16,704 nucleotides of DNA from an uncultured Bacilli bacterium (GTDB lineage: Bacteria > Bacillota_I > Bacilli_A > RF39 > UBA660), in the NCBI GenBank assembly GCA_944358325.1, contig CALVQV010000020.1, forward strand, positions 1 to 16,704. Reading direction: 5' to 3'. The first letter of the stretch is position 1, and each line of letters starts with the position of its first letter. The notes beneath the pieces are model-generated. The model was not told the origin of the DNA, made no database searches, and worked only from the letters and a program-made list of their open reading frames with translations. This document shows positions 1 to 14,521 of this stretch, in pieces. A program made the position numbers and the translations under genes.

Positions 1-61
1 TATGATATAATTGTTATAGAATAATTAAAATATAGAATATGATAAAATGAATTTACACAGT

Positions 62-110
62 TAAATTTACAGGGTCACACAGTAAATTTACAGGGTCTTA
101 CAGGGTCTTA
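62..110 (+). repeat. Direct-repeat array in the target-gene promoter. The 15-mer TAAATTTACAGGGTC occurs twice (62-76, 83-97; 21-bp period) and the 10-mer CAGGGTCTTA occurs twice in tandem (91-100, 101-110). Core unit is TTACAGGGTC.
   Basis: Exact repeats read directly from the sequence. A degenerate copy, AATTTACACAG, lies at 50-60. The array overlaps the predicted -35 and spacer. Confidence 0.8.
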
Positions 111-116
111 TATAAT
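87..116 (+). promoter_or_regulatory. Putative sigma-A-type promoter of the DGR target gene
   Basis: -35 TTTACA (87-92), 18-bp spacer, perfect -10 TATAAT (111-116). RBS AGGAG at 128-132 lies 7 nt before the ATG at 140. Confidence 0.45.
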
Positions 117-139
117 TTAGATAGAATAGGAGAGAAAAA

Positions 140-1819
140 ATGAAAGAAAAAGGATTCACGCTTATAGAATTACTAGCAGTCATCGTTATATTAGCAGTAA
201 TAGCTTTAATCGCAACACCACTAATTATGGGCGTTATTGATGAAGCCAAAGACGGAGCTAATAAAAGAAGTGTCCAAAGTATAAGAGATGGAGCAGAAAC
301 ATTTTTATTATCTAAAAAAACTTTAGATAGTAATTATACTTTCAATATGAATGATTATCAATTCAAAGGAAATCAATTTGGTAAAGGAACATCTGATGAA
401 AGAATTAATATTGTTTTTAATGATAAAGATGAAGCCAGTGTCGCAGTATATGAAAATAATAAATGTTATTATATCTTAGCAGGATCAAATGAAGTAAAAA
501 GTGAAACAGGCTTAGATAAACAACAATGTTTAGAAAAAGCAGGAGCAACTGAAATAGTAGAAGGAAATCCTCTACTACCACAAATAGAAGCTAACTTATG
601 TACAAGTGAAAAAACAACCGAATGTTATAAAACAGAAGGTAATGAATATATCTATACAGGAGCATATGGAACAGGTGGAGTAAACTGGTTATGGTATGGA
701 GGGCATCAATGGCGTATTATCAAAGTAGATAAAACAACTGGAAGATATACTTTAATTACATCATATCCTGCAACAGCAATTCAATGGCAAAGTAGTATAG
801 CAAATGGGCCATCATTAGAAGAGTCATATGTAGGAAATTGGTTAAATAATGTGTTTGTTGCATCATTACCAACTAATGTTCAATCAAAATTAGAAAATAT
901 GACATATACAAGAAAAGTATATGATGGAAGTAGTGTTGTAGAAGAAGAAATAAGTAATGTTAAAGTTAGACTTCTAACAGAAAATGAATATACAACTTAT
1001 GGCGGAGCAGATAGTTATTTAGATATAAAGGATTGGTGGTGGCTAGCAGATATATATACTTCGTCTCGCGTCCGTAGTGTGAACGACGGCGGCAATTTGA
1101 GCAGCGACAGGCCGTCGAGCGCGAATGGTGTGCGCGCCATTGTGGAAATATCTGATATCACCATCACAGAAGGTGATGGTACTCTTAGCGCGCCATATAT
1201 TGGAAACACAAGTAAAGCTACAAACTTATCAGATATTGCAGTCGGAGAATATATAAGTATTCCTAAAAGTGATGGTGGAACTTATTTAGCCCGTGTTGTT
1301 AAACGTGATCAAAATGGTACAAAAGTTATTCTAAATGGTTTATATAATACAAGTGCTTTTGGAAGTAATGCAACATTTTCAACAAGTAGTACAATTTATA
1401 CAGGAGCTTTAATAGGATTTAAAAATAGTTTAGATAGTAATTATTTTGATGGTACTAATCGTAATTTCAATATGACAACGTATGGAGATGGAGCAAATTA
1501 TGCAGATACAACAACTATGTTTACTGGCAATATCGGACTACCTAGCGTAGGGGAGATGTTTAGTGGAAATGATATAGATGTAACAACTAGTTCTAAAACA
1601 TTTGTAGATACAAGTAAAATATTAAATCCGACATTAAGTTCTTATTATTGGTTAATGAATGCCTATAGTTCGTCTAGCGTCCGTAATGTGAACAACTACG
1701 GCTACTTGAACAACAGCAGTCCGTCGTACACGGGTGGTGTGCGCGCCACTTGGTATATCTCTGATATCACCATTACCGGAGGTAATGGTACTCCTAGCGC
1801 CCCATATACCTTAAAATAG
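140..1819 (+). CDS. DGR target (variable) protein with a type IV pilin-like N-terminus and two tandem VR-bearing ligand-binding-type modules
   Basis: 559-aa ORF. The N-terminus MKEKG/FTLIELLAVIVILAVIALIA matches the prepilin cleavage/methylation motif (Gly-1, Phe+1, Glu+5, hydrophobic helix). Two paralogous modules (about aa 165-355 and 365-559) both end in WW(L)..SS.VR.VN..G.L....PS...GVRA...ISDITIT.G.GT.SAPY. VR1 covers aa 308-334 and VR2 covers aa 511-537. Confidence 0.9.
   Translation: MKEKGFTLIELLAVIVILAVIALIATPLIMGVIDEAKDGANKRSVQSIRDGAETFLLSKKTLDSNYTFNMNDYQFKGNQFGKGTSDERINIVFNDKDEASVAVYENNKCYYILAGSNEVKSETGLDKQQCLEKAGATEIVEGNPLLPQIEANLCTSEKTTECYKTEGNEYIYTGAYGTGGVNWLWYGGHQWRIIKVDKTTGRYTLITSYPATAIQWQSSIANGPSLEESYVGNWLNNVFVASLPTNVQSKLENMTYTRKVYDGSSVVEEEISNVKVRLLTENEYTTYGGADSYLDIKDWWWLADIYTSSRVRSVNDGGNLSSDRPSSANGVRAIVEISDITITEGDGTLSAPYIGNTSKATNLSDIAVGEYISIPKSDGGTYLARVVKRDQNGTKVILNGLYNTSAFGSNATFSTSSTIYTGALIGFKNSLDSNYFDGTNRNFNMTTYGDGANYADTTTMFTGNIGLPSVGEMFSGNDIDVTTSSKTFVDTSKILNPTLSSYYWLMNAYSSSSVRNVNNYGYLNNSSPSYTGGVRATWYISDITITGGNGTPSAPYTLK
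1062..1139 (+). repeat. DGR variable repeat 1 (VR1)
   Basis: 78-nt ungapped alignment to TR 1851-1928 with 13 mismatches. Eleven are at TR adenines (10 A->G, 1 A->C). Two are at non-adenines (TR c1885 vs t1096; TR t1900 vs g1111). It forms a GC-rich island in an AT-rich gene. Confidence 0.85.
1160..1180 (+). promoter_or_regulatory. Hairpin 20 nt downstream of VR1, a candidate DGR target-recognition (IMH-associated) stem-loop
   Basis: ACCATCAC (1160-1167) pairs with GTGATGGT (1173-1180) as an 8-bp perfect stem with loop AGAAG. The position is equivalent to the hairpin after VR2. Confidence 0.6.
1671..1748 (+). repeat. DGR variable repeat 2 (VR2)
   Basis: 78-nt ungapped alignment to TR, offset exactly 180 nt. 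There are 7 mismatches, all at TR adenines (TR 1857, 1877, 1883, 1896, 1907, 1913, 1914; 4 A->G, 3 A->T). Confidence 0.92.
1769..1789 (+). promoter_or_regulatory. Hairpin 20 nt downstream of VR2, a candidate DGR target-recognition stem-loop
   Basis: ACCATTACC (1769-1777) pairs with GGTAATGGT (1781-1789) as a 9-bp stem with loop GGA. Relative to the VR1 hairpin, a C:G pair is replaced by T:A through compensatory changes on both arms. Confidence 0.6.
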
Positions 1820-1850
1820 AGTAAGTATTGTAGGTGTAAGAACAAAAAAG

Positions 1851-1928
1851 CGTCTAACGTCCGTAATGTGAACAACAACGGCAACTTGAACAACAACAGT
1901 CCGTCGAACACGAATGGTGTGCGCGCCA
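1851..1928 (+). repeat. DGR template repeat (TR)
   Basis: Non-coding copy of the VRs, 31 nt after the target stop codon. It has 25 adenines in 78 nt, mostly as AAC/AAT codons in the VR reading frame (S N V R N V N N N G N L N N N S P S N T N G V R A). It ends in the GC-rich GGTGTGCGCGCC shared with both VRs. The 5' edge could extend to about 1841. Confidence 0.9.
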
Positions 1929-2101
1929 GAGCTCCTTGAAACTTAGAGTATATGAGTATTTTGTATATGTGAAGCCATGGAACAGTTCTTATTCCTGGGA
2001 ATATCCTAAAATTACATAAGTTTAATTAAGTTTTGGTAAGTGATGAAGAAGATTAATTAGTAATTCTTATGGGAAAACAGAAGAAATTTTTTCTTCTGTT
2101 T
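1851..2101 (+). ncRNA. Putative DGR RNA (TR plus a downstream spacer of about 145 nt), possibly the 3' UTR of the target mRNA
   Basis: No terminator lies between the target stop (1819) and the TR. The first intrinsic terminator is at 2075-2109. No credible ORF lies in 1929-2074. The 5' end of the RNA cannot be determined from sequence. Confidence 0.4.
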
Positions 2102-2109
2102 TTTAATTT
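2075..2109 (+). terminator. Rho-independent terminator after the TR and spacer
   Basis: AAACAGAAGAAA (2075-2086) pairs with TTTCTTCTGTTT (2090-2101). The core CAGAAGAA/TTCTTCTG stem is followed by a T-rich tract TTTTTAATTTT. Confidence 0.75.
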
Positions 2110-2156
2110 TTAGTATTTTTTTATGATAATTATGATGTTTTATGTTGACATTTTGC

Positions 2157-2183
2157 TTGACACGTGTGTGTGTGTGTTATTAT
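2157..2183 (+). promoter_or_regulatory. Putative promoter of the msl-avd-RT operon
   Basis: Perfect -35 TTGACA (2157-2162) and TG-extended -10 TGtTATTAT (2175-2183). The spacer is 15 bp and consists almost entirely of (GT)7. A second TTGACA lies at 2145-2150. Confidence 0.45.
2164..2177. repeat. (GT)7 dinucleotide microsatellite
   Basis: GTGTGTGTGTGTGT read directly from the sequence. It lies between the -35 and -10 elements upstream of msl. Confidence 0.95.
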
Positions 2184-2198
2184 TTGTTTGGTGATTAT

Positions 2199-2600
2199 AT
2201 GTTATATAAGGTATGGGAATGTTTGAAAGTAAGACATAGTTTTTTTGTTATTTTTATGAAGTATGGTAATTTTTATAAGGTTTATGGTGATGATGTTTTT
2301 ATTGTGTGGAAGATTACGGGGTATCGTGTTATTAATGGTGATCATATTGGTTTTCCTCTTAAGTCTTTAAATGTTGTTTTAAAAAGGTTAGAACTTTTAC
2401 ATGTTAGTTATATTGTTTATGATGGATGTGATGATTATTTGATGGTTGATGATGTTAATAATTGTTACATTAATGTTTTAAGTGAGTTTAAAGATTTATA
2501 TTTAAATGAAGATAGAATTAAAAAGATTGTGGAAAAGTTTGAATTTAAGGTTAGAGAGGATAAGGAAATGCTAGATTATTATGAAGAGTTATGGAAGTGA
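2199..2600 (+). CDS. MutS mismatch-binding domain I-like small protein (MSL-type DGR accessory protein)
   Basis: The ORF track gives 2142..2600. I prefer the ATG at 2199 (RBS GGTGA 2190-2194) because the upstream 19 codons overlap the promoter and GT tract. [33 protein letters not shown] aligns with the E. coli MutS N-terminus [59 protein letters not shown] aligns with [28 protein letters not shown]. The ORF overlaps avd by 20 nt. Confidence 0.7.
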   Translation: [133 protein letters not shown]

Positions 2601-2937
2601 TTTTGTTGTTATTAGGGAGTTTAAGAGTTTTATTTGTGTTGTTGAGGGTGAGTTTGATAATTGTCCTAAAAAGTGTTTATATTTAAAAGATAGTTTATTT
2701 GATATGTGTTATATGGTTTTAGAGGATATTTATGTGTGTAATATGGGGAATAATCGTTTGGTTTATATTAATCGTGTTATTGCTAGGTTAAGGATTATTG
2801 ATTTTATGCTTAAAAGATGTGTAGATATGGGGATTATTAGTTATAAACGTTTTTTATTTTTAGGAAATAAGTTAAATAGTGTAGTGAGAATGTGTTATGG
2901 GTGGTTAAAAAGTGAAAAGAGTAAACTTGAGGTATGA
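2581..2937 (+). CDS. avd: Avd-like accessory variability determinant (four-helix-bundle, 23S rRNA-IVS protein family)
   Basis: 118 aa, located directly upstream of the DGR RT and overlapping it by 26 nt. The helical pattern with a ..F..CPKK.. segment after helix 1 and a C-terminal MCYGWLKS matches the typical Avd layout (fPk.ek ... ml.gw.ks). The call rests on size, position and motifs only. Confidence 0.7.
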   Translation: MKSYGSDFVVIREFKSFICVVEGEFDNCPKKCLYLKDSLFDMCYMVLEDIYVCNMGNNRLVYINRVIARLRIIDFMLKRCVDMGIISYKRFLFLGNKLNSVVRMCYGWLKSEKSKLEV

Positions 2938-3883
2938 TGATGTTTTAAGTTATGAGAATCTTGAATTTATTTATTATATGCTTAGAAAAGGTGTTAAAAA
3001 TAAAGAAAAGTTAGATAAATTTGATTTATATTATAGTTCTAATATAAGTCATATTTATAGTTTGTTAAAAGAAAGAAGATATGAAGTTGGTTCTTATCAT
3101 CTTTTTTATATTTATGAACCAAAGAAAAGGCTTATTATGAGTCAGGGGATTGGTGATAAGATTGTTAATCATTTTGTTGCTTATTTCTATTTAATTCCTC
3201 TTCTTGACCCCTGTTTAATTAATAGTAATGTGGCAGTTAGGAAGAATATGGGAACTAGTTATGGTATTAAGTTATTAAAGAAATATTTTAGTAGTTTTAA
3301 AGGTGATTTTTATATTTTGAAGTGTGATATTAAGGGGTATTTTTATAATATTAATCATGATATTTTAAAAGTGTTGGTTGCAAGAAAGATTAAAGATAAA
3401 GATATTCTTAATTTAGTGTTTAAGATTATAGATAGTGTTGATAGTTATGGTATTGGAGGACTACCTATTGGTAATATGACTAGTCAGATTTTAGGTATAT
3501 ATTATTTAAATGGTTTAGACCACTATATTAAAGAAGTTTTAGGTATTAGGTGTTATATTAGGTATATGGATGATTTTATTCTTCTAGCTCGTGATAAATG
3601 TTATTTGAAAGAGTGTTTAAATAAGATTAAAGCGTATATTAGTGGATTAGGTTTAGAATTAAATTCTAAGACAATGATTAGTAGTAGTAAAAGTGGTGTT
3701 AATTTTTTGGGTTATCATTTTAGTTATGATAAGCATGTAGTTATTAAACCACATAATTATAATAAAAGAAAAATTAAACGAAAAATGAGGTTATATAAAG
3801 AAGGAAAGATAAGTTATAATAGGATTATTTGTTATAAAGGTTATTTTAGTTATTGTTCCCAAAGTAAGACATTTATAGTATAA
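2912..3883 (+). CDS. DGR-type reverse transcriptase
   Basis: 323 aa with a GTG start at 2912 and RBS GGTGG at 2900-2904. RT motifs present: EPKKRLIM, GDKIVNHF, YILKCDIKGYFYNI, LPIGNMTSQ (the DGR-specific IGxxxSQ signature), and RYMDDFILLA (YMDD catalytic box). No maturase, endonuclease or integrase extension. Confidence 0.92.
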   Translation: MKRVNLRYDDVLSYENLEFIYYMLRKGVKNKEKLDKFDLYYSSNISHIYSLLKERRYEVGSYHLFYIYEPKKRLIMSQGIGDKIVNHFVAYFYLIPLLDPCLINSNVAVRKNMGTSYGIKLLKKYFSSFKGDFYILKCDIKGYFYNINHDILKVLVARKIKDKDILNLVFKIIDSVDSYGIGGLPIGNMTSQILGIYYLNGLDHYIKEVLGIRCYIRYMDDFILLARDKCYLKECLNKIKAYISGLGLELNSKTMISSSKSGVNFLGYHFSYDKHVVIKPHNYNKRKIKRKMRLYKEGKISYNRIICYKGYFSYCSQSKTFIV

Positions 3884-3899
3884 TATTAGTGGTGATATT

Positions 3900-4844
3900 A
3901 TGAAAAAAAGAGTGGTTGTTTTAGGTGGTGGGACAGGAATGTCTACTTTATTACGTGGCTTAAAACAATTTCCTATTGATATAACAGCTGTTGTTAGTGT
4001 TTGTGATGATGGAAGAAGTACTGGAAGGTTAAGAGAGGAATTTAATATTCCAGCTGTTGGCGATATTCGTCAAGTTTTAGTAGCACTATCAGAAGTAGAA
4101 CCATTAGTAGAAAATCTTTTAAATTATCGTTTTAAGACGACTAGTGATTTAAATGGTCATACGGTTGGTAATTTACTTTTAACAGCTTTAAAAAATATTA
4201 ATGGAACGATGTCTGATGGGATTGAGTCTTTAGGTAAGATTCTTAATTTAAAAGGTAAAGTTTTACCATTAACAGAGGATAATGTTACTTTAGTAGGTTT
4301 AATGGAAGATGGTAGTAAAATAGAAGGTGAACACAATATTACAGAATCAGATTTAAGAGTTATGGAAGTTAGTTATAAAGATGCACCTATTGTTAATAAA
4401 GAGGTTATTAAAGAAATAAAGCGTGCGGATTTAATTATTTTAAGTATGGGTAGTTTATATACAAGTATTATGCCTAATTTAGTAGTTCCTGAAGTTGTTG
4501 AAGCGATTGAAAATAGTAAGGCTAAAATTATGTATGTTTGTAATATGATGACTCAACCAGGTGAAACTGATGAATATCGTGTTAGTGATCATATTAAAGC
4601 TTTAAATAAGCATTTAGGTAAACGTAGTATTGATATTGTTTTAGTTAATGATGGTGAAATACATCCAGAATTAATTAAAAGATATGCAACTTTAGAACAA
4701 AAAGATCCTGTTTTTTATGATATTGAAGAAGTTAATAAATTAGGAGTTAGAGTTATTGAAGATGATTTTGTTATTTTAGATAGAGAAATGATTCGTCATA
4801 ATTCAATGAAATTAGCTTTTCATATTTTTTCAAATTTAATGTAG
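3900..4844 (+). CDS. yvcK: Gluconeogenesis factor YvcK/GlmR family protein (UPF0052, CofD-like)
   Basis: N-terminal VVVLGGGTGMSTLLRGLK motif. 314 aa. Lies immediately upstream of whiA, as in other Firmicutes. Confidence 0.9.
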   Translation: MKKRVVVLGGGTGMSTLLRGLKQFPIDITAVVSVCDDGRSTGRLREEFNIPAVGDIRQVLVALSEVEPLVENLLNYRFKTTSDLNGHTVGNLLLTALKNINGTMSDGIESLGKILNLKGKVLPLTEDNVTLVGLMEDGSKIEGEHNITESDLRVMEVSYKDAPIVNKEVIKEIKRADLIILSMGSLYTSIMPNLVVPEVVEAIENSKAKIMYVCNMMTQPGETDEYRVSDHIKALNKHLGKRSIDIVLVNDGEIHPELIKRYATLEQKDPVFYDIEEVNKLGVRVIEDDFVILDREMIRHNSMKLAFHIFSNLM

Positions 4845-4857
4845 AATGAGGTGATTT

Positions 4858-5769
4858 ATGTCATTTACAGGTAGTGTTAAAGAAGAAGTTATTAATCTTA
4901 ATTCAAGTGATTTAGAGTCTCGTGCTTGTTTAAGTGCAATAATTCATAATGTTGGTAGTATTACAAATGATAGTATTAAAGTAGTTACGGAAAATAGTTT
5001 ACTTGCTAAATATATTGATACACTACTTAGAGATATATATGATATAACGCCTAAAATTATTGTTCGTAAAGGCTATAATTTTAATAAAAATTATTTATAT
5101 ATTATTGAATTTATTAATAAATTAGATTTAGTTATTAAAGATTTATCTTTAGATGACAATATTCCTAAGGAATATTTATATGATGATAGTGAATTATTAC
5201 GTTCTTATTTAAGAGGTATTTTCTTGGCTGTTGGAAGTATTAATGATCCAAAGAAGTCAAGATATCATTTAGAGTTCTTAGTAGATAGTAAGAAGTATGC
5301 TTATTTTATTATGGATAAGCTTAATAGTTTTAATTTAAATAGTAAAGTTTTAAAAAGAGAAACTAAGTATATGATTTATGTTAAAGAGTCAGAAAAGATT
5401 AGTGATTTTTTAAGACTTATAGGGGCTTCTAAAGCCGTTATGTACTATGAAGATATACGTATATATCGTGATCATGTTAATATGACTAATCGTCTTAATA
5501 ATTGTGAACAAGCGAATGTTGAAAAAACAATTAATGCCTCTAATGAACAAATAAAAGAAATAGAATTATTAAAAGAAAAAGATGTATATGACTTGTTAGA
5601 TGATAAAGTTAAGGAAGTAGCAGTTTACAGACTTAAATATCCTGATGTTTCTTTAACAGAGTTAAGTGAAATAATTTCGGTAGAAACAGGTAATAAAATC
5701 ACTAAATCAGGTCTTCATCATCGTATGCGTAAAATAAAAGAAATGGCTAATAAAGTAAGAAATATGTAG
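4858..5769 (+). CDS. whiA: DNA-binding protein WhiA
   Basis: 303 aa. N-terminus MSFTGSVKEE..., LAGLIDADG-like middle region (YLRGIFLAVGSINDP) and C-terminal HTH (TKSGLHHRMRKI). Conserved yvcK-whiA synteny. Confidence 0.9.
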   Translation: MSFTGSVKEEVINLNSSDLESRACLSAIIHNVGSITNDSIKVVTENSLLAKYIDTLLRDIYDITPKIIVRKGYNFNKNYLYIIEFINKLDLVIKDLSLDDNIPKEYLYDDSELLRSYLRGIFLAVGSINDPKKSRYHLEFLVDSKKYAYFIMDKLNSFNLNSKVLKRETKYMIYVKESEKISDFLRLIGASKAVMYYEDIRIYRDHVNMTNRLNNCEQANVEKTINASNEQIKEIELLKEKDVYDLLDDKVKEVAVYRLKYPDVSLTELSEIISVETGNKITKSGLHHRMRKIKEMANKVRNM

Positions 5770-5782
5770 AAAGGGTGATAGC

Positions 5783-6952
5783 ATGAAATGTATTTTAATG
5801 AATAAAAATATTGAAGTATTAGTTGCTGAGTACGATCAAGAAATTAAAGTTTTTAGTAAGATATATGAAATTAAAAATATTAAATATGCACCATTCCAAT
5901 TAGAAAATGCTTATTATAAAAAAGAAACATTTCGTGCTTCATTATCTGAATGGTTTGTTGGGAGAGGTATTCCATCATGGCGTGATGATTTAGATATTTT
6001 ATTATCTAAATTAAATATATCTACACCTAAAGAATTATTAGATAAAGCTTTTGGTTTGTCATTATCTGATCAATATTGGTTAAAGCCATATAATAGTAAT
6101 ATAAAATATGATGATATAAATTTTTTTGATCATGATTTTCAAGGCTCAGAATTTACTAATATAACATTTTCTTCTAGTAATACAAGTTCTAACAAAGTTA
6201 GTTTAATTTCCCCTAATAATACAACAGATGGGCGATTAAAAAAAACGTGGATTATTGAAAATAAGACAAGATATTTATTAAAGGGTGGTTATAAAAATGA
6301 AGTTATGCAACCATTTAATGAAGTATTAGCAACTATGATATGTAAACGTATGGGGTTTAAACATGTTCCTTATGAGCTTGCTATTGTAAATGATAAAGTA
6401 GTATCTAAATGTCCATGTTTTATTACAAAAGATACAGAATTAATAAGTGCTTATCAAATTCTTCATAATAATTGTCATAAAAATAATGCTTATATTGAAT
6501 ATATTAATATTTTAGAAGAACATGGTATTAAAAATGCTAGAGAAAATTTAGAAGATATGTTTATATTAGATTATCTAATGTTAAATGAAGATAGACATCT
6601 AGGTAATTTTGGTATAATTAGAAATGTTGAAAATTTAAAGTGGCTTGAAACAGCTCCCATTTTTGATACTGGTCAATCATTAAATATTTTAGATTATAAT
6701 GATGAAGAATTACTTATTAATGGTGCAGGAAGATTTTTCTATGAAAGTAATAATTTTGATTATTTACTTACTAAAATAAAAGATATCAAAAGATATGATT
6801 TAAATAAGTTAGATGGGTTATGTGATGAATTTGATAGTTTATTACATAAATATAGTAGTATTACACATATGACTGATAGAAGAATTGATAAAATATGTAC
6901 TTTATTAATGAGTCGTATTAACAAATTAAAAAGGTATATCAAAAGCGTTTAG
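5783..6952 (+). CDS. HipA-like serine/threonine kinase domain protein (orphan, no adjacent HipB/HTH partner)
   Basis: 389 aa. The HipA_C-type catalytic region LMLNEDRHLGNFGII (compare N.DDH.kN) is followed by APIFDTGQSL (compare APlYD). N-terminal SLSDQYWLKP motif. Confidence 0.6.
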   Translation: MKCILMNKNIEVLVAEYDQEIKVFSKIYEIKNIKYAPFQLENAYYKKETFRASLSEWFVGRGIPSWRDDLDILLSKLNISTPKELLDKAFGLSLSDQYWLKPYNSNIKYDDINFFDHDFQGSEFTNITFSSSNTSSNKVSLISPNNTTDGRLKKTWIIENKTRYLLKGGYKNEVMQPFNEVLATMICKRMGFKHVPYELAIVNDKVVSKCPCFITKDTELISAYQILHNNCHKNNAYIEYINILEEHGIKNARENLEDMFILDYLMLNEDRHLGNFGIIRNVENLKWLETAPIFDTGQSLNILDYNDEELLINGAGRFFYESNNFDYLLTKIKDIKRYDLNKLDGLCDEFDSLLHKYSSITHMTDRRIDKICTLLMSRINKLKRYIKSV

Positions 6953-6966
6953 CGCTTTTTCTTTTC
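6941..6966 (+). terminator. Rho-independent terminator after the HipA-like gene
   Basis: AAAAGCG (6941-6947) pairs with CGCTTTT (6953-6959), loop TTTAG (contains the stop codon), followed by TCTTTTC. Confidence 0.6.
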
Positions 6967-6968
6967 TA

Positions 6969-6997
6969 AAGACAAAATTAATAATTTATAGTATAAT
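6969..6997 (+). promoter_or_regulatory. Putative promoter of the DHH-rplI-dnaB cluster
   Basis: -10 TATAAT at 6992-6997. Weak -35 AAGACA at 6969-6974 with a 17-bp spacer. Confidence 0.35.
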
Positions 6998-7017
6998 ATT
7001 ACAAGAAGAGGTGAACC

Positions 7018-7983
7018 ATGGTTGATGTATTTAATAAAATAACCGAAGCAGTTAAAAGTCACGATAAAGTTATTATTATGGCTCATCGTCATATTGATTA
7101 TGATGCTTTAGGTAGTGCTTTAGGATTATATGAAATAGTTAAATCTTTTAATAAAGAAGTAGCTATCTATGTAGATAGTGATTTAAAGGAAATGGTTAAT
7201 ACTAAGTTGTTTGATTTGATTGCTAATTTAGATATTAAATTTATATATAAAAATACTTATCATAAGTTTATAAGTGATAATACTCTTTTAATTATTGTAG
7301 ATACGCATAAAGAAGAAATGCTTGCTAATCACGAATTGTTGAATTGTGTTAAAAATAAAGTTATTATTGACCATCATATTAAAAGCAATGAATATATAAA
7401 AGATGCTTTATTTAGTTATATTGATTCTAATTTATCTAGTATTAATGAGTTTGTAGCTTTTTATTTAAAATATCTTAATAAAAGTGTTGATAGTGTTATA
7501 GCAACTATTATGCTTACAGGAATTGAGTTAGATACTAATGATTTCCATAGCAAAACAACACCTAATACTTTTTTAGCAGCTTCTTATTTAGCTACACTAG
7601 GTGCGAATACTTATGATACTTTAGAACTTATGAAAGAAGATAAAGATGCAACAATTAGAAGAATGAATTATTTAACTAGATCTTATACCATTGATGATGA
7701 AATTATGATATGTCCTTTGGATAGTGAAAAATTACTTCCTAAGGATCTAGCCATCATCTCTGATATGCAAATGAGCTTTACAAATATTGAGTTAGGCTTT
7801 GTTATTGGTAATTTAATTAATGGCAAGGTAGGTATTAGTGCTCGTTCTAGTGGTAAATATGATGTTTCTAAAATAATGCAAGCTTTAGGTGGTGGTGGAC
7901 ATGCTACCGAAGCTGCTGTTCAAATCGAAGGCAAAAGTATAAAAGAGGTTGAAAAAGAGTTAAAAAGTTTATTGAAGAGGTGA
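7018..7983 (+). CDS. DHH/DHHA1 family phosphoesterase (NrnA/GdpP-catalytic-domain-like)
   Basis: 321 aa. Motifs: MAHRHIDYDALGSA, IIVDTH, IIDHH (DHH) and GGGGH (DHHA1). It sits upstream of rplI-dnaB in the position gdpP occupies in Bacillus, but lacks TM, PAS and GGDEF regions. Confidence 0.8.
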   Translation: MVDVFNKITEAVKSHDKVIIMAHRHIDYDALGSALGLYEIVKSFNKEVAIYVDSDLKEMVNTKLFDLIANLDIKFIYKNTYHKFISDNTLLIIVDTHKEEMLANHELLNCVKNKVIIDHHIKSNEYIKDALFSYIDSNLSSINEFVAFYLKYLNKSVDSVIATIMLTGIELDTNDFHSKTTPNTFLAASYLATLGANTYDTLELMKEDKDATIRRMNYLTRSYTIDDEIMICPLDSEKLLPKDLAIISDMQMSFTNIELGFVIGNLINGKVGISARSSGKYDVSKIMQALGGGGHATEAAVQIEGKSIKEVEKELKSLLKR

Positions 7984-7987
7984 ATAT

Positions 7988-8425
7988 ATGAAAGTTATAT
8001 TACTTACGGATGTTAAAAAATTAGGTAAAAAAGATGCGATTATTGATGTTAAAGATGGTTATGGTAATTTTCTTATTAAAGAAAATAAAGCTGTTATTGC
8101 AACATTAGGTAGCATTAATCGTTTAAATAAAGAAAATAGTCTTAAAGCTTTAGAAGAAAATCTTTTGATTAAAGAAATGCAATCTTTAAAAACAAAGATG
8201 GAAAAAGTTAAATATGAAATTAAAGTAAAAACCGGTACAGGAGACCGTGTCTTTGGTAGTGTTTCTACTAAACAAATTGCTGGTATGCTAAAAGAAAAAG
8301 GATTTTCTATTGATAAAAAACAAATTCATTTAGATCATGAATTAACATCTTTAGGAACACATAATGTGGATATTGTTTTACATAAACAAGTAACTGCAAC
8401 AATTAAGATTAATTTAGTTAAGTAG
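7988..8425 (+). CDS. rplI: 50S ribosomal protein L9
   Basis: 145 aa. MKVILLTDVKKLGKKDAIIDVKDGYGNFLI is a typical L9 N-domain. Synteny with dnaB. Confidence 0.95.
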   Translation: MKVILLTDVKKLGKKDAIIDVKDGYGNFLIKENKAVIATLGSINRLNKENSLKALEENLLIKEMQSLKTKMEKVKYEIKVKTGTGDRVFGSVSTKQIAGMLKEKGFSIDKKQIHLDHELTSLGTHNVDIVLHKQVTATIKINLVK

Positions 8426-8433
8426 GTGAAGTT

Positions 8434-9777
8434 ATGGCAGAAAAAATCATGCCCAACAATCTAGAAGCAGAACAATCCGTTTTAGGTAGTATGTTCTTAA
8501 GTAAAAGTGCTTGTCAGAGAGCTCTTGAGTCTTTAACTAAAGAGTCTTTTTATAGTGAAGCAAATGGTAATATTTTTGCTTGTTTAGGAGAATTAATTGA
8601 AGCAGGTAAACCAATTGACATCACAACAGTTACAGCAGCTTTAGATAAGCAAAAATTACTTAAACAAGTAGGTGATGTTGAATATTTAACAGAAATAGTC
8701 AATATTGTTCCAACAGCAGCTAATATTGAAGAATATATTAAAATAGTTTTAGAAAAAGCAACCCTTCGTCGTTTAATTGAAGAAGCAACTAAAATTATTA
8801 ATGATGGTTACAATTCAACTGATAGTTTAAGTGATATTTTAGATAATGCTGAAAGAAAAATTTTAAATGTCGTTAAAACACGTAAAGGTACAGAATTTAA
8901 AAGTATTACCGAAGTTTTATTTAAAACGCAAGCTGATATTGAAAAATTATCACAAAATAAAGGTGAAGTTACTGGAATTGCAACAGGTTTTCGTGATATT
9001 GATAAACTTACAAGTGGTTTCCATGCAAATGAGCTTATTATTGTAGCAGCTCGTCCTGCCATGGGAAAAACAGCTATTGCTTTAAATATGGCTATTAATA
9101 TGGCCAATAGTTCTAAAAAAGCCATTGCTTTATTTAATATGGAAATGGGTGCTGAACAATTAGCGATGCGTATGATTGCTAGTGTTGGTCAAATTAATCA
9201 AGGTAAAATAAGAACAGGTCGACTAGAACATAATGATTGGCGTCGTGTTAATGAAGCAATTAGTAGACTTGCTGATACTAAAATATTTATTGACGATACT
9301 CCAGGTATGACAATAGGTGAAATAAGAGCTAAATGTCGTCGCCTAGCAAGTGAACAAAATGGCTTAGGAGCAATTATAATCGACTACTTACAGCTTATTA
9401 GTGGTGGTGCAAAATATGCCGGAAATCGTCAACAAGAAGTATCAGAAATATCTCGTTCTTTAAAAACTTTAGCTATGGAATTAGAAGTTCCTGTTATTGC
9501 TTTAGCCCAATTATCACGTAGTGTTGAAGGTCGTGATGATAAACGTCCACTTTTAAGTGACTTACGTGAATCTGGATCTATTGAACAAGATGCTGATATA
9601 GTAGCATTCTTATATCGTGATGATTATTATACAAAAGAAATAAGTATTGATGAATATACAAGTAAGAGTGAGTTTATAATCGCAAAACACCGTAGTGGTC
9701 CAACAGCCACAATTGATTTAATATTCAAACGTGATACAGGTACGTTTGTTAATTTCTTAAATGAAGAAGAAAAATAG
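8434..9777 (+). CDS. dnaB: Replicative DNA helicase DnaB (DnaC in Bacillus nomenclature)
   Basis: 447 aa. N-terminus PNNLEAEQSVLGSM, Walker A AARPAMGKTA, IIIDYLQL, and SRSLKTLAMELEVPVIALAQLSR motifs. Confidence 0.95.
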   Translation: MAEKIMPNNLEAEQSVLGSMFLSKSACQRALESLTKESFYSEANGNIFACLGELIEAGKPIDITTVTAALDKQKLLKQVGDVEYLTEIVNIVPTAANIEEYIKIVLEKATLRRLIEEATKIINDGYNSTDSLSDILDNAERKILNVVKTRKGTEFKSITEVLFKTQADIEKLSQNKGEVTGIATGFRDIDKLTSGFHANELIIVAARPAMGKTAIALNMAINMANSSKKAIALFNMEMGAEQLAMRMIASVGQINQGKIRTGRLEHNDWRRVNEAISRLADTKIFIDDTPGMTIGEIRAKCRRLASEQNGLGAIIIDYLQLISGGAKYAGNRQQEVSEISRSLKTLAMELEVPVIALAQLSRSVEGRDDKRPLLSDLRESGSIEQDADIVAFLYRDDYYTKEISIDEYTSKSEFIIAKHRSGPTATIDLIFKRDTGTFVNFLNEEEK

Positions 9778-11256
9778 GTGATAAATTTGAAAAAAATTTT
9801 CTATATATTAATTTTATTTGTAATCGCTGGTGCTTTATTTTCTTTAGGATTTAATAGCAAAAAGCAATATGAACCTAATGTTTATTATCAAGTATATTTA
9901 GAAGATGAAGTTTTAGGTGTTATCAAATCTAAAAAAGAATTAGATGATTATATTGATAAAAAAGGTGATAACATAAAAAAAGAATTAGGTGTATCTAATG
10001 TATATGCGCCTAATGGCATAAAAGTAGAAAAAATTGCTACTTACAATAAAGAAATTAGTAGTGTTGAAGACATCTATAAACAAATTGAAAAAGAAGCTTC
10101 TTTTACTATAAAAGGATATCAATTTACTATTCGTAAAACTAATGAAGAAACAGGCAAAGAAAGTGTTTCATACATATATACAACAACAGAAGATGTATTT
10201 ACTGAAGCTATAACCAGTTTTGTTGAAACCTATATTGGTGAAGAAACATACACAGCTTTTATAAATGGCGATGTTGTAGAGATTACAACAACGGGAAGTA
10301 AAACAGAAAATATATATATTAATGAAGATATAACTATCAAAGAAAGATATATACCTACAACTGAAAAAATATATAATAATAGTAAAGAACTATCACAATT
10401 TTTACTATTTGGAAAAAATATTGAAATGAAAGAGTATACAGTAAAAGCTGGTGAAACCTTAGAACAAATAGCTTATAATAATGAAATCAGTGTTAATGAA
10501 TTAATATTATCTAATCCAGATTTTTCTGGTGAAAATCAGTTGGTATTTGCTGGACAAGTTATTACGATAGGTGTACCAGATCCACAATTAAGTGCTGTTA
10601 TTGAAGAATATGTTGTGGAAGATCAAGAAGTAGCTTATACAACGGTTGAAGTATATGATGAGACAATGAATATGGGACAAATGGAAGTACGTCAAAATGG
10701 CGAAAATGGTACTGTCCGTGTTGCTCAACGAGTTAAAACAGTTAATGGGGTTGTTACTTATGTTGAACCAGTAAGTAAAACTGAATTAAAGCCGACAGTT
10801 AATAAAATAGTTGCTTTAGGTTCAAAATATATACCAACAGTTGGATCTACCAAAGATTGGCGTTGGCCTACTGATAGTGGATGGCGTATTACAAGTTCAT
10901 ATGGATGGCGTATTGATCCATATACTGGTTCTCGTTCTTTCCACAATGCTATAGATATTGCTGGTACAGGATATGGTTCAAATATTTATGCTGTTACTAA
11001 TGGTGTAGTATATCAAAGTGCTTATACATCTGTTAACGGTTATTATATAATTATTAATCATAATAACGGTTATTATACTTATTATGGCCATATGATTAGA
11101 AAATCACCACTTACAGTTGGATCTACAGTTGCTAAAGGAGACGTTATAGGTTATGTAGGATCTACAGGAGCTGCAACAGGACCACACGTTCACTTTGCTG
11201 TATGGGTTGGTATACCATGGCGTGGTTACCATATAAATCCACTTAGTATGTATTAA
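9778..11256 (+). CDS. Membrane-anchored LysM-G5-M23 family metallopeptidase
   Basis: The N-terminal TM is IFYILILFVIAGALF. LysM is YTVKAGETLEQIAYNNEISVNELILSNP. A G5-like segment is VEVYDETMNMGQMEVRQNGENGTVRV. The M23 motifs are HNAIDIAG and GPHVHFAV. The start is uncertain: GTG at 9778, or TTG at 9787 with RBS AGGTGA at 9776-9781. Confidence 0.8.
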   Translation: MINLKKIFYILILFVIAGALFSLGFNSKKQYEPNVYYQVYLEDEVLGVIKSKKELDDYIDKKGDNIKKELGVSNVYAPNGIKVEKIATYNKEISSVEDIYKQIEKEASFTIKGYQFTIRKTNEETGKESVSYIYTTTEDVFTEAITSFVETYIGEETYTAFINGDVVEITTTGSKTENIYINEDITIKERYIPTTEKIYNNSKELSQFLLFGKNIEMKEYTVKAGETLEQIAYNNEISVNELILSNPDFSGENQLVFAGQVITIGVPDPQLSAVIEEYVVEDQEVAYTTVEVYDETMNMGQMEVRQNGENGTVRVAQRVKTVNGVVTYVEPVSKTELKPTVNKIVALGSKYIPTVGSTKDWRWPTDSGWRITSSYGWRIDPYTGSRSFHNAIDIAGTGYGSNIYAVTNGVVYQSAYTSVNGYYIIINHNNGYYTYYGHMIRKSPLTVGSTVAKGDVIGYVGSTGAATGPHVHFAVWVGIPWRGYHINPLSMY

Positions 11257-11257
11257 T

Positions 11258-12022
11258 ATGGAAATATCAGTTCTAGCTACAGGAAGTAAAGGAAATTGTA
11301 CCTATATCAAAACTAATAATCATAAAATATTAGTTGATTTAGGTACTACTTCTTTATATGTTGAAAAGCAACTAAAAGATTTAAACGTTGAACCAAAAGA
11401 GATAGATAGTATATTTATAACTCATACCCATGTAGATCATATTAATGGTTTAAAAGTATTTATAAAAAAATATAACCCAACAATCTTTTTAACTAATAAA
11501 ATGTATCAAGAATTAGTAAAAATGTTACCAATTACTAATTATTATTTATTAGAAGAAGATACTGTTATAGATGATTTAATTATTCATGTATTTAAAACTT
11601 CACATGATGTTGAAGATTCTAATGGCTATATATTTGAAAGTGATAATAAAAGTATTGTATATATTACAGATACAGGCTATATTAACGTTAAATATCATAA
11701 AATGTTAGTTAATAAAGACTTTTATGTGATGGAAAGTAATCATGATGTAAGAATGCTTATGGATGGTAAATATCCATATCATTTAAAACAACGTATTGTA
11801 GGTGATAGAGGTCACTTATCCAATAAAGACTCTGCTAACTATTTAGCTAATTTTATTGGTGATAAAACTAAAGGAATTGTCTTAATCCATTTAAGTGAAG
11901 ATAATAATACTCCTGATATTGCTTATAATACTTTAAAACAAACATTAGAAAGAAGAAATAAACAAGTAGATAAAATATTAATTTCTAATCAAAGAGAACA
12001 TACGGAGTTGATAACTTTATGA
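11258..12022 (+). CDS. MBL-fold metallo-hydrolase (YycJ/WalJ-like)
   Basis: 254 aa. HTHVDH metal-binding motif, and GNCTYIKT at the N-terminus. Overlaps rlmH by 4 nt (ATGA). Confidence 0.8.
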   Translation: MEISVLATGSKGNCTYIKTNNHKILVDLGTTSLYVEKQLKDLNVEPKEIDSIFITHTHVDHINGLKVFIKKYNPTIFLTNKMYQELVKMLPITNYYLLEEDTVIDDLIIHVFKTSHDVEDSNGYIFESDNKSIVYITDTGYINVKYHKMLVNKDFYVMESNHDVRMLMDGKYPYHLKQRIVGDRGHLSNKDSANYLANFIGDKTKGIVLIHLSEDNNTPDIAYNTLKQTLERRNKQVDKILISNQREHTELITL

Positions 12023-12474
12023 TAAAAATTATTGCAGTTGGAAATATTAAAGAATCTTTCTTTAAAGAAGCCATCTTAGAATACCAAAAACGTATATCCA
12101 AATATACTAAGTTAGAAATTATTGAAGTTAAAGATTATGATTTAGATAGTCCTAATTTAAATATGGAAAAAGAAAAAGAAGCCATATTAAAGCATATTAC
12201 ACCTAAGGATTTTATAGTTACTCTAGTCATTGAAGGAAAAGAAATGACTAGCCCATCTTTTGCTGAAGCTTTAGATAAATGGTTTATGCAAAAAGGTAAT
12301 ATAACATTTATTATTGGTGGATCAAATGGTTTAAGTAAAGAACTAAAAGATATGAGTAACTTTCAATTATCTTTTTCACCTATGACTTTTCCACATCAAT
12401 TATTTCGTATAATTTTACTTGAACAAATATATCGTGCTTATAAAATAAAAAATAATGAATCTTATCATAAATAA
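12019..12474 (+). CDS. rlmH: 23S rRNA (pseudouridine1915-N3)-methyltransferase RlmH
   Basis: 151 aa SPOUT-type. MIKIIAVGNIKESFFKEAILEYQKRI, and a C-terminal IGGSNGLS...SFSPMTFPHQLFRIILLEQIYRAY. Confidence 0.9.
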   Translation: MIKIIAVGNIKESFFKEAILEYQKRISKYTKLEIIEVKDYDLDSPNLNMEKEKEAILKHITPKDFIVTLVIEGKEMTSPSFAEALDKWFMQKGNITFIIGGSNGLSKELKDMSNFQLSFSPMTFPHQLFRIILLEQIYRAYKIKNNESYHK

Positions 12475-12487
12475 GTATAAAAAAATA

Positions 12488-12522
12488 AAAAACCGCTCAT
12501 TAAAAAATAGGAGGCGGTTTTT
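12488..12522 (+). terminator. Possible weak terminator or hairpin after rlmH
   Basis: AAAAACCGC (12488-12496) pairs with GCGGTTTTT (12514-12522), but the loop is 17 nt and contains the spoIIR RBS AGGAGG. This is poor geometry for a terminator. Confidence 0.3.
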
Positions 12523-12524
12523 AA

Positions 12525-13049
12525 ATGAAAAAAACCATAATATTAACTATTATTATCATCATCTTTATTATAATTACTAACTCGGTAAAACAAGATTTAG
12601 TAAAAATACCTAAAGAAGCTATTAGAATTCGTGTTCTAGCCAATAGTAATGATAACTATGATCAAGAAATGAAAAAACAAGTAAAAGAATTGGTAGCTAA
12701 TCAATTATATCCCAAATTAAATAATGTCAAGAATATTAATGAAGCAAGGAAGGTTATTAACAATAATATTGATAATATAGAAAAAAATATTAATACTTTC
12801 TTTACACAAAAAAAATATAATCAAAATTATGAAGTGATTTATGGATTAAATTACTTTCCGGAAAAAGAATATAAAGGTGTTTATTATGATGAGGGTTATT
12901 ATGAATCATTACTTGTAACAATCGGTGATGGTTCTGGCGATAATTGGTGGTGTGTTTTATTCCCACCACTATGTTTGATGGAGGCCGAAGAAAGTGAAGA
13001 AGTAGAATATAAATTTTTCGTTCAAGAATTAATTGATAAATACTTTTAG
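12525..13049 (+). CDS. spoIIR: Stage II sporulation protein R
   Basis: 174 aa with a signal/TM N-terminus. IPKEAIRIRVLANSN and GDGSGDNWWCVLFPPLC are diagnostic of the SpoIIR family. Confidence 0.88.
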   Translation: MKKTIILTIIIIIFIIITNSVKQDLVKIPKEAIRIRVLANSNDNYDQEMKKQVKELVANQLYPKLNNVKNINEARKVINNNIDNIEKNINTFFTQKKYNQNYEVIYGLNYFPEKEYKGVYYDEGYYESLLVTIGDGSGDNWWCVLFPPLCLMEAEESEEVEYKFFVQELIDKYF

Positions 13050-13059
13050 TAATATCTAA

Positions 13060-13093
13060 AAAACTTCCATCGTAAAATATGGTGGAGGTTTTT
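13060..13093 (+). terminator. Hairpin plus T-run after spoIIR. Its 3' arm contains the mntP Shine-Dalgarno sequence.
   Basis: AAAACUUCCAUC (13060-13071) pairs with GGUGGAGGUUUU (13081-13092) as a 12-bp stem including 2 G.U pairs. The loop is 9 nt and the T-run is 13089-13093. Confidence 0.45.
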
Positions 13094-13618
13094 ATGTGGA
13101 AAATAATACTTATTGCAGTTAGTTTATCAATGGATGCTTTTTCGCTTTCACTTTCCTATGGAACTAATGGTATAAAAGAACATGATATTAGAAAGATTGC
13201 TATAACAGTGGGCATTTTTCATTTTTTTATGCCATTATTTGGTTTATTAATGGGAAGTACTTTACTTTTTTTTATAAAAATAAATACGGATATTTTAGTT
13301 TTTGTCATTCTTACTTTTATTGGTATTGAAATGTTAGTAGAAAGTTTTAAAGAAAGAGAAGAAATTCATCTTATTTCTTTAGTAGAATTATTACTTTTCG
13401 CACTAGCAGTTAGTTTAGATAGTTTATCTGTTGGTATAGGCCTTAAAGCAATAACTAATCAGTATATTACTAGTTCTATTATATTTGCCTTAACAAGTTT
13501 TATGTTCACTTTTACAGGCTTAAAAATAGGTAAATATGCTAATCTTAAATTAGGAACTATTGCGACTATTATAGGTGGTATTATTTTAATAATTTTAGGA
13601 TTACTATACATATTATAG
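13094..13618 (+). CDS. mntP: Manganese efflux pump MntP family protein (DUF204)
   Basis: Two DUF204 repeats (SMDAFSLSLSYG and SLDSLSVGIGL) in a polytopic membrane protein. The ATG at 13094 is preferred over 13079 because GGAGG at 13084-13088 lies 5 nt upstream of it. Confidence 0.8.
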   Translation: MWKIILIAVSLSMDAFSLSLSYGTNGIKEHDIRKIAITVGIFHFFMPLFGLLMGSTLLFFIKINTDILVFVILTFIGIEMLVESFKEREEIHLISLVELLLFALAVSLDSLSVGIGLKAITNQYITSSIIFALTSFMFTFTGLKIGKYANLKLGTIATIIGGIILIILGLLYIL

Positions 13619-13630
13619 TGTCTAGTCTAA

Positions 13631-13659
13631 TTGCTATTTTATAAAAAAACATTTATAAT
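13631..13659 (+). promoter_or_regulatory. Putative fba promoter
   Basis: -35 TTGCTA (13631-13636), 17-bp spacer, -10 TATAAT (13654-13659). Confidence 0.5.
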
Positions 13660-13675
13660 ATATATTGGTGATAAT

Positions 13676-14521
13676 ATGTTAGTAAATACAAAACAAATAT
13701 TAGAAGATGCTAAAGCGCATCATTATGCTATTCCACATTTTAATATTAATAATTTGGAATGGACAAAATATATTCTTGAAGAATGTCAAGAATTAAATAA
13801 TCCTGTTATATTAGGTGTTTCCTTAGGAGCAGCTAAATATATGGGTGGTTTTTATGCCGTTGCTTCAATGGTAAAAGGCTTAATTAAAGATTTAAATATA
13901 ACTATACCTGTTGTATTACATGTTGATCATGGAACATATGAAGGATGCTTAGAAGCAATTGAAGCAGGTTTTTCTAGTGTTATGTTTGATGGTTCTAAAC
14001 TATCATTAGAAGAAAACATAGAAAAAACAAAAGAAATTGTTGCTCTAGCGCATGCTAAAAATATAACTGTTGAAGCTGAAATAGGACATATTGGTGGCGA
14101 AGAAGATGGTGTTGCTGATGAACTTGCTTATGCTAAAGTAGAAGATGCTTTTATGCTTGCTAAAGAAACAGGTATTGACTTACTCGCACCTGCTTTAGGA
14201 AGTGTTCATGGTATATATAAGGGCGAACCAAAACTTGATTTTGATCGCATGTTAAAAATTAAAGAATTAACTAATTTACCACTAGTATTACACGGTGGTA
14301 GTGGTATTCCTGACGAAATGATTAAAAAGGCTATTTCCTGTGGTATTTGTAAATTAAATATAAATACAGAACTACAAATGGCATGGGCTAAAGGTGTAAG
14401 AGAAAAAATAAGTAATGATAATAGTGTTTATGATCCTCGTAAAATAATAGGTGCCGGCGAAAAATATATGAAAGAAGCTATTAGAGAAAAAATAAGTTTA
14501 TTAAATAGTACAAAAGCATAG
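13676..14521 (+). CDS. fba: Class II fructose-1,6-bisphosphate aldolase
   Basis: MLVNTKQILEDAKAHHYAIPHFNINN, VVLHVDHG, LHGGSG and KLNINTE motifs. The ATG at 13676 (RBS GGTGA) is preferred over the ORF-track start at 13631, which overlaps the promoter. Confidence 0.92.
   Translation: MLVNTKQILEDAKAHHYAIPHFNINNLEWTKYILEECQELNNPVILGVSLGAAKYMGGFYAVASMVKGLIKDLNITIPVVLHVDHGTYEGCLEAIEAGFSSVMFDGSKLSLEENIEKTKEIVALAHAKNITVEAEIGHIGGEEDGVADELAYAKVEDAFMLAKETGIDLLAPALGSVHGIYKGEPKLDFDRMLKIKELTNLPLVLHGGSGIPDEMIKKAISCGICKLNINTELQMAWAKGVREKISNDNSVYDPRKIIGAGEKYMKEAIREKISLLNSTKA

Follow-up and report, generated by a model that had tools for sequence, protein, structure and literature searches.

How does the heavily mismatched retrohoming intermediate of a diversity-generating retroelement (DGR) survive under the mismatch repair of its host? 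A small gene that bears on this question is found in the genome of an uncultured Bacilli bacterium (RF39; UBA660), of which we analysed positions 1 to 16,704 on the forward strand of contig CALVQV010000020.1 (NCBI GenBank assembly GCA_944358325.1). This whole stretch of 16,704 nucleotides (nt) is called the window in the following. It carries a complete DGR at its left end, and the gene in question, msl, stands in front of the genes for the accessory protein Avd and the reverse transcriptase (RT). We are nearly certain that its product Msl is a DGR accessory protein of the Msl class with the fold of domain I of MutS, a protein of mismatch repair, the published members of the class (MSL) being compared by their description only. 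The enzyme operon consists of the following features:

2199 to 2600, plus strand: msl, MutS-like DGR accessory protein of 133 amino acids (aa), ATG at 2199 and TGA at 2598-2600
2190 to 2194, plus strand: Shine-Dalgarno-like GGTGA, 4 nt 5' of the msl ATG, read from the sequence
2581 to 2937, plus strand: avd, 118 aa, basic with an isoelectric point (pI) of 9.0, matching NCBIfam DivGenRetAVD, a PHROG and Pfam bAvd
2912 to 3883, plus strand: DGR RT gene, 323 aa, GTG start, pI 9.6, matching Pfam RVT_1 with E=2.6e-16

The three genes overlap in the order msl-avd-RT. The initial annotation had placed the open reading frame (ORF) 2199-2600, coding for 133 aa, at the head of the DGR enzyme operon, which is borne out by the sequence and by the family matches of avd and RT. 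The same holds for its overlap of 20 nt with avd, which is kept across relatives; avd and RT overlap by 26 nt. A longer in-frame ORF starting from the ATG at 2142 was considered and rejected, as its extra 19 codons span a promoter-like element with a variable-length (GT)n tract described below and are not conserved in relatives. We regard 2199 as the correct start because of these unconserved codons, because the GGTGA is conserved in the related loci L001, L003 and L102-L111 (L denotes loci of relatives and P proteins of the family), and because the homologues P0004, P0005 and P0008 begin at the residue equivalent to position 2199. A shorter homologue of 114 aa (P0002) was also rejected as a truncated Msl, since the DNA of L103 contains the intact 133-aa ORF and the short form is a choice of the gene caller. 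Comparing the window with L001, whose Msl shows 80% aa identity, the ratio of nonsynonymous to synonymous substitution rates (dN/dS) amounts to 0.39 in msl, to 0.14 in avd and to 0.19 in RT, and msl is under purifying selection.

With the single Msl sequence as query a phmmer search against the PDB returned noise only (a terpene synthase, E=0.25), and a profile search was needed. The search against Pfam that had been proposed together with the initial annotation gave a significant match to MutS_I (PF01624), borderline in its score (21.4 bits at a gathering cut-off of 20.6, E=3e-4), and no domain besides it. BLASTP aligned residues 9-33 of Msl without gaps to residues 20-44 of MutS from E. coli K-12 (36% identity, E=1e-4), and the local score observed for this pair was reached by none of 1000 shuffles. 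Using the profile of the Msl family, hhalign against residues 13-95 of E. coli MutS resulted in a probability of 91% and E=1e-6, and a search of the PDB led to MSH6 (E=9e-5) and to the MutS proteins of Taq and E. coli. The similarity between Msl and MutS is real and goes beyond chance. NCBIfam and PHROGs contain no family for Msl, and its relatives carry the source label 'hypothetical protein'. The alignment to MutS had been called gapless, which is true for its first block; the second block (HIGFP in Msl, MAGIP in MutS) is offset by 8 residues. It is not gapless overall because Msl lacks the MutS residues ~60-67.

An AlphaFold2 model of Msl, calculated from a 109-sequence alignment, reached a predicted local distance difference test (pLDDT) value of 94.2 and a predicted template modelling (pTM) score of 0.84. 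Its elements are, with H for helix and E for strand, H2-12, E17-22, E25-29, H32-40, E49-53, H54-66, E71-74, E80-83, H90-118 and H122-132. Structure prediction and comparison had been suggested as a check on the domain I assignment, and the outcome agrees with it: the top 50 Foldseek matches in the PDB were all domain I of MutS, MSH6 or MSH3, with E-values down to 4e-5 and root-mean-square deviations of 1.5-2.6 Å across 70-86 residues. The query-normalised template modelling score was ~0.5, as nothing in the matched structures corresponds to the C-terminal hairpin. In the model residues ~1-85 form the domain I fold and residues ~90-132 an acidic two-helix hairpin, and the fold predicted for Msl is that of an entire MutS domain I (a1-b1-b2-a2-b3-b4-a3-b5-b6), shortened by 8 residues in a loop. 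Among viral structures in BFVD, phage proteins consisting of a stand-alone 'MutS domain I' were matched; a tblastn search with Msl as query gave no match in 50,697 phage records.

Compared with domain I of MutS and MSH6, Msl shows the same fold and order of elements and shares a lysine in helix 1, the G-x-F-Y motif in the turn from b1 to b2, D-A where helix 2 begins and G-(I/F)-P before helix 3. In contrast to these proteins it has a lysine in place of Glu38 and lacks 8 residues in the b3-b4 loop, and it adds an N-x-Y motif and the acidic helical hairpin at the C-terminus. Domains II-V of MutS and MSH6 are missing, hence the clamp, the ATPase, the MutL interface and the dimerisation region. 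That Msl has no clamp, ATPase or dimerisation region had been read from the sequence before, and both the Pfam scan and the model, in which domain I and the hairpin stand alone, agree with this. As Msl has 133 aa with MutS_I as the only domain detected and without domains II-V, it is not a MutS protein.

Small MutS-like proteins of this kind are known from DGRs. The initial annotation had pointed to an accessory class named MSL, and this corresponds to the class 'MutS-like' ('Architecture D') described by Wu et al. 2018 in NAR (PMC5758913) as one of four classes of DGR accessory genes. MSL proteins were found there in 16 of 372 DGRs; they have 112-283 aa and a pI of 7.2 +/- 1.7, always occur together with avd and never with HRDC, and are mostly found in clades of the RT tree, with one MSL in a Legionella DGR and a C-terminal MutS_I motif in three RTs (PMC5758913). 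More recently Macadangdang et al. reported Msl in three Bacteroides DGRs, Bfr, Bth and Bun (bioRxiv 10.1101/2024.11.15.621889). The window Msl resembles the published proteins in its small size (133 aa, within the range of 112-283), in its homology to MutS domain I, in the presence of avd without HRDC and in its restriction to an RT clade, and its gene lies between the template repeat (TR) and avd-RT. It differs from them in being somewhat more acidic (pI 5.6 compared to the mean of 7.2), in its origin from uncultured low-GC gut Bacilli and in belonging to a DGR that targets a pilin-like protein with two variable repeats (VRs). The RTs with C-terminal MutS_I described by Wu et al. 2018 contain the same module, which in the window is a separate cistron before avd. 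HRDC, as found in DGRs of the Treponema type, is likewise a small nucleic-acid-binding accessory domain that stems from repair or recombination proteins and occurs in a subset of DGRs, but its fold is unrelated and according to Wu et al. the two never co-occur. As the gene class was already published in 2017, the presence of msl will not surprise a DGR specialist; what is added here is its adjacency or fusion to avd and RT, the restriction to a single RT clade and the purifying selection.

To which genes, then, is msl tied in other genomes? Searching 1.84 billion cluster representatives exhaustively with a hidden Markov model yielded 483 Msl relatives at E<=1e-3 (counted as cluster representatives), nearly all of 110-150 aa and with matches over the full length, and no full-length MutS was among the 150 best matches. 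Pfam MutS_I is matched by 115 of 123 aligned members (best E=1.2e-12), and no other domain is matched consistently. In all 11 loci from species-representative genomes msl stands beside avd, RT or, in L009, their decayed remnant. Their gene order is msl-avd-RT or, in L011 and L013, avd-RT-msl, and the more distant members P0246 and P0262, which come from long contigs, are again part of msl-avd-RT cassettes with overlapping genes. The positional avd homologues of L017-L020 match bAvd. Loss or disruption of the ORF in close relatives with an otherwise intact and active DGR would have spoken against the initial annotation; msl was found to be kept in all close relatives examined. Two decayed loci may be mentioned here as well. 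P0176 (L015 and L016, 4001-4589) is an intact msl next to a pilin-like target, with avd cut to 59 aa and RT gone, which looks like a decaying DGR; this Msl sequence is present on 20 contigs. The second, in L009 (4968-5498), is a decayed DGR in which msl is intact and joined, in the same reading frame, to a short piece of RT.

The module is also found fused to both of its neighbours. P0098, P0151 and L026 are RT-Msl fusions in which the full Msl including its hairpin follows directly behind the RT thumb, and P0135 and P0235 are fusions of Msl to the N-terminus of Avd, with the cluster of P0235 comprising 96 members. Fusions in both directions are a classical indication that RT, Avd and Msl act together, and we consider it probable that Msl works physically with RT-Avd. 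In the genome of L026 (1156-2499 and 4399-5565) a canonical mutS with MutS_I (E=1.5e-44) and domains II and III is located ~2 kb downstream of the RT-Msl fusion. The large family conserved over its full length, the dN/dS of 0.39, the confident fold, the conserved avd overlap and the fusions led us to reject msl as a decaying mutS fragment or a functionless chance ORF. The single-sequence Pfam score barely past its threshold and the empty phmmer search against the PDB would fit such an origin, whose probability we nevertheless take to be negligible.

A survey starting from the RT had been proposed as well, and its result is that msl is restricted to the RTs closest to that of the window. Among 80 metagenomic DGR RT loci with 28-41% identity msl accompanies none but the RTs that score nearest to this clade (L022, L026, L028, L035, L045, L057 and L058), and the ~65 more distant RT loci are without msl in any form; msl is confined to one RT clade. 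In L023 (2792-4090) and L025 (3498-4775) the RT ends in a truncated Msl remnant of helix 1 and the first two strands, in which G-x-F-Y is changed to N-x-Y-Y. This distribution would suit a cofactor of cDNA synthesis, with Msl at the exit of the RT gripping the RNA:cDNA hybrid that is mispaired opposite the template adenines and either aiding extension past mismatched termini or holding template and primer together. Beside the clade restriction, which is seen in our survey and by Wu et al., such a role is favoured by the position of Msl right behind the RT thumb in P0098, P0151 and L026, by the order avd-RT-msl in L011, L013 and L022, and by the truncated remnants that remain on the RT in L023 and L025. 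Established knowledge of the Bordetella DGR argues otherwise, as RT, Avd and the RNA suffice there for adenine mutagenesis and cDNA synthesis. Furthermore, MutS domain I is known for recognising kinked B-form DNA rather than A-form hybrids, and since Msl-Avd fusions exist, closeness to the thumb is not obligatory. Altogether we regard a function in cDNA synthesis as possible, though less likely than not, and as the main rival of the shield described below.

In MutS Phe36 stacks on the mismatched base and Glu38 hydrogen-bonds to it, and both the discrimination of mismatches and the signal to the ATPase depend on Glu38; MSH6 has this Phe-X-Glu motif, MSH2 and MSH3 do not (PMC3848065). Msl has the sequence GNFYK at this site, in which Phe25 corresponds to Phe36 and Lys27 to Glu38 of E. 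coli MutS, so that the alignment upholds the earlier description of a kept stacking phenylalanine and a glutamic acid replaced by lysine. In the model F25 is placed as Phe36 is in MutS, at the start of the second strand behind a tight turn. The Phe25 position is a phenylalanine in 122/123 and 109/109 family members, and G23, F25 and Y26 are near-invariant over >200 diverged sequences. The position equivalent to Glu38 is a glutamic acid in 8/123 and 8/109 relatives (~7%) and otherwise R, N, K, H, Y, T, I or others. Near-invariant in the family are K10, G23, F25, Y26, D32(-A), Y42, (G)F52-P53, L64 and Y71, together with the MSL-specific motif N88-x-Y90. Msl thus keeps the phenylalanine and not the glutamic acid of mismatch-recognising MutS and MSH6: it retains the wedge, without the verifying residue and without an ATPase to signal to. 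Domain I of MSH2 and MSH3 also lacks the glutamic acid contact to the mismatch on the same fold (PMC3848065), but these are parts of full-length, repair-active ATPase heterodimers, whereas Msl is stand-alone and linked to an RT.

The loss of the glutamic acid could also be taken as a sign that Msl serves the RT-Avd particle in a purely structural way, as adaptor or chaperone and without a part in nucleic-acid or mismatch recognition, its domain I fold being co-opted for protein-protein contact. The charges of the proteins agree with this, with an acidic Msl (pI 5.6 for the whole protein and 4.8 for the hairpin) beside the basic partners Avd (9.0) and RT (9.6), and so do the dN/dS of msl, which is above those of avd and RT, and the truncated remnants without the phenylalanine. 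An adaptor would leave the near-invariance of G23, F25 and Y26 and of the MutS-shared D-A and G-F-P motifs to be accounted for, and a mismatch-recognition domain in a system whose key intermediate is mismatched would be a remarkable coincidence. We therefore find a merely structural role improbable.

From its fold and its partners we infer that Msl is a nucleic-acid-binding subunit of the RT-Avd machine. Msl would ride on the basic RT-Avd complex, with the acidic hairpin as the likely docking part, and its Gly-x-Phe-Tyr beta-turn would engage the distorted or mismatched duplex of adenine-mutagenised cDNA and VR. It could thereby occupy sites of the MutS type and yet would be unable to license repair, because it has neither Glu38 nor a clamp, an ATPase or the domains contacting MutL. 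The net effect would be a locally delivered shield by which the heteroduplex escapes the host MutS. That Msl is such an anti-mismatch-repair shield of the retrohoming heteroduplex, which the initial annotation had put forward beside a marking or protecting function, is the reading we prefer tentatively and with less than even confidence. In a Bacteroides DGR without Msl the deletion of the host mutS increased retrohoming 5-10 fold in an all-or-nothing manner (bioRxiv 10.1101/2024.11.15.621889). Engineered DGRs in E. coli also gain from the suppression of mismatch repair, and 'MutS-like homologs' were the rationale in one such paper. Both results, together with the variable Glu38 position, make a shield plausible, and in at least one case, L026, a canonical MutS is encoded by a host with an RT-Msl DGR.

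Several points weigh against this preferred reading. The literature search found no paper that tests the function of any Msl, be it by binding or by genetics. MutS domain I alone, without the clamp domains, has little affinity to DNA, and an overall acidic protein (pI 5.6) is unusual among DNA binders. As the glutamic acid partner is not conserved in any part of the family, the kept phenylalanine is weaker evidence for stacking on a mismatch than the initial annotation implied, and what keeps Gly-x-Phe-Tyr constant may be the structure and not the function. Moreover, the full module must be dispensable in some lineages, since L023 and L025 keep only a truncated remnant without the phenylalanine, and a part in cDNA synthesis would explain the restriction to an RT clade and the fusions at the RT C-terminus no less well than one at the later heteroduplex step.

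Mismatch repair could also be antagonised indirectly, with Msl titrating MutL or the beta-clamp or poisoning MutS dimers. That mismatch repair limits DGR activity is a general point in its favour and the only one. In MutS the connector, ATPase and C-terminal regions mediate the binding of MutL and dimerisation, as known from established structural work. Msl has no connector, ATPase or C-terminal dimerisation region, and in cis msl goes together with RT and Avd and not with repair genes. The absence of the relevant MutS regions makes titration of MutL or of the beta-clamp unlikely, and we give any such indirect antagonism very little credence.

The remaining parts of the element, all located upstream of msl, are:

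140 to 1819, plus strand: DGR target gene, 559 aa, matching Pfam N_methyl (E=2.7e-7) and DUF6273 (E=3.6e-6)
1062 to 1139, plus strand: VR1, the internal variable repeat, 78% identical to TR, with 11/13 differences at TR adenines
1671 to 1748, plus strand: VR2, the C-terminal variable repeat, 91% identical to TR, with 7/7 differences at TR adenines
1851 to 1928, plus strand: TR, 78 nt with 25 adenines, belonging to a three-copy repeat family
1929 to 2110, plus strand: non-coding stretch 3' of TR, presumed DGR RNA spacer, with a hairpin at its end followed by a T-run

The RT is of the DGR type (RVT_1, motif YIRYMDD) and matches the PHROG reverse transcriptase with E=7e-80, and the differences between TR and the VRs are almost confined to TR adenines. 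Of the 20 differences 18 are at adenines, with A>G in 14, A>T in 3 and A>C in 1 case, and 2 are at other bases. Because both of the non-adenine differences are in VR1, this copy may be older or rewritten less frequently than VR2. The family matches of avd (NCBIfam DivGenRetAVD with E=2.6e-8, PHROG 'Avd protein of DGR' with E=3.4e-8 and Pfam bAvd with E=1.2e-3) are all three under the curated cut-offs. Only msl, avd and RT lie between TR and cofD, without HRDC, and the same is seen in the relatives.

The target protein starts with an N-terminal prepilin-type methylation signal, followed by two C-terminal DUF6273-type modules with a VR at the end of each. It matches NCBIfam IV_pilin_GFxxxE, and its matches to ComGC- and GspG-like proteins are weak. 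The DGR thus has a target like a type IV pilin or pseudopilin with a GFxxxE signal, and a single TR feeds both VR-bearing modules.

Behind TR a non-coding stretch of ~180 nt is closed by a terminator-like hairpin (2072-2104) and a T-run. The stretch 1929-2110 is essentially invariant between the window, L001, L002 and L003, the msl genes of which are ~17% different in their DNA, and judged from this conservation it is probably the functional spacer of the DGR RNA. L003 shows a tandem duplication of 58 nt within the stretch. The predicted fold of the RNA from TR and spacer is no better than that of shuffles (z = -1.07), for which reason we make no claim about its structure, and an Rfam search of the window gave 0 matches.

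Between this terminator and msl we found a further element:

2157 to 2183, plus strand: promoter-like element of the msl-avd-RT operon, TTGACA-C-(GT)7-TATTAT, read from the sequence

It consists of TTGACA (2157-2162), a C, (GT)7 (2164-2177) and TATTAT (2178-2183), with a TG two bases 5' of the -10 hexamer. Its spacer has 15 nt, and a consensus promoter scan missed it because 16-18 nt were required there. We compared the tract at the equivalent position in the window, L001-L014 and L102-L111. The same layout TTGACA-(GT)n-[T/G]ATAAT, with n between 4 and 11, is found in L005-L014, diverged relatives with an Msl identity of just 31-42%; it reads TTGACAG(GT)11TATAAT in L005 and TTGACAAC(GT)nGATAAT in L006-L014. 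Near-identical loci from different samples have n = 4, 5, 6, 7, 9 or 10 and spacers of 9-21 nt, and some loci that differ in n encode an identical Avd protein. The value n = 8, corresponding to the canonical spacer of 17 nt, is absent from these loci. In the 547 kb of sequence retrieved GT tracts of >=6 units occur at this position only. With a repeat between the -35 and -10 hexamers whose length is polymorphic among close relatives, the (GT)n spacer is a candidate for a phase-variable promoter of the DGR enzyme operon, as far as can be judged from sequence comparison. A literature search found no report of a phase-variable promoter on a DGR, and the hypervariable tract is possibly the most novel item at this locus. 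A second tract, a constant (GT)5, was seen in three related loci (L006 2697-2706, L008 2497-2506 and L009 2846-2855), where it sits 130-190 nt 5' of the target gene right behind an upstream terminator.

The operon also stands out by its base composition. At ~27% the window is low in GC, and nearly all of its genes are on the plus strand; the coding strand of the operon is very poor in C and rich in G+T, with 12 C in the 402 nt of msl and 8 C in the 357 nt of avd. At third codon positions C occurs once in msl and not at all in avd, and the GC skew is 0.77-0.84; Msl is devoid of Ala and Gln and has many Cys, Tyr and Val. The skew of 2199-3883, seen at third positions as an excess of G and a lack of C, gradually fades across ~6 kb, up to ~8400, through cofD, whiA, hipA and nrnA. 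Compared to the sister clade the third positions of RT have shifted from ~40% to 21-25% A and from ~6% to 14-18% G, a loss of 15-20 points in A and a gain of ~10 in G, and this shift from A to G mirrors the A>G-dominated spectrum of the DGR itself. The asymmetry may stem from self-mutagenesis as a collateral effect, from deamination acting on the non-template strand or from a foreign origin.

Downstream of the DGR follow a cofD/yvcK-like gene, whiA, a hipA-like gene, a gene for a DHH phosphoesterase, the gene for L9, dnaB and others, and from these housekeeping genes it follows that the DGR is chromosomal. The gene for the HipA-like kinase (5783-6952) is flanked by whiA and by the gene for the DHH phosphoesterase, and as L001 and L003 are without it at that position, it is a strain-specific insertion. 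The closest relatives are metagenome-assembled genomes from animal gut labelled 'uncultured Bacilli bacterium' or 'Tenericutes'.

In summary, the locus is a compact example of a DGR-encoded MutS domain I module, its 133 aa being modelled with confidence and its operon clearly laid out. Engineers add dominant-negative MutL to DGR mutagenesis systems because mismatch repair curbs retrohoming, and a module of this kind is what one would first suspect as nature's own answer to this problem. The invariance of G-x-F-Y, the loss of the glutamic acid, the acidic hairpin and the fusions to RT and Avd make the idea experimentally specific. Taken as a whole it would mean that Msl is a 'mismatch cap' delivered in cis, a natural mismatch repair inhibitor made from the recognition domain of MutS itself, which is carried by RT-Avd to the heteroduplex of cDNA and VR and blocks MutS there, and that its operon is switched stochastically by the (GT)n spacer. 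We consider this combination rather doubtful; if it is true, chance would decide which minority of the cells enters a burst of diversification.

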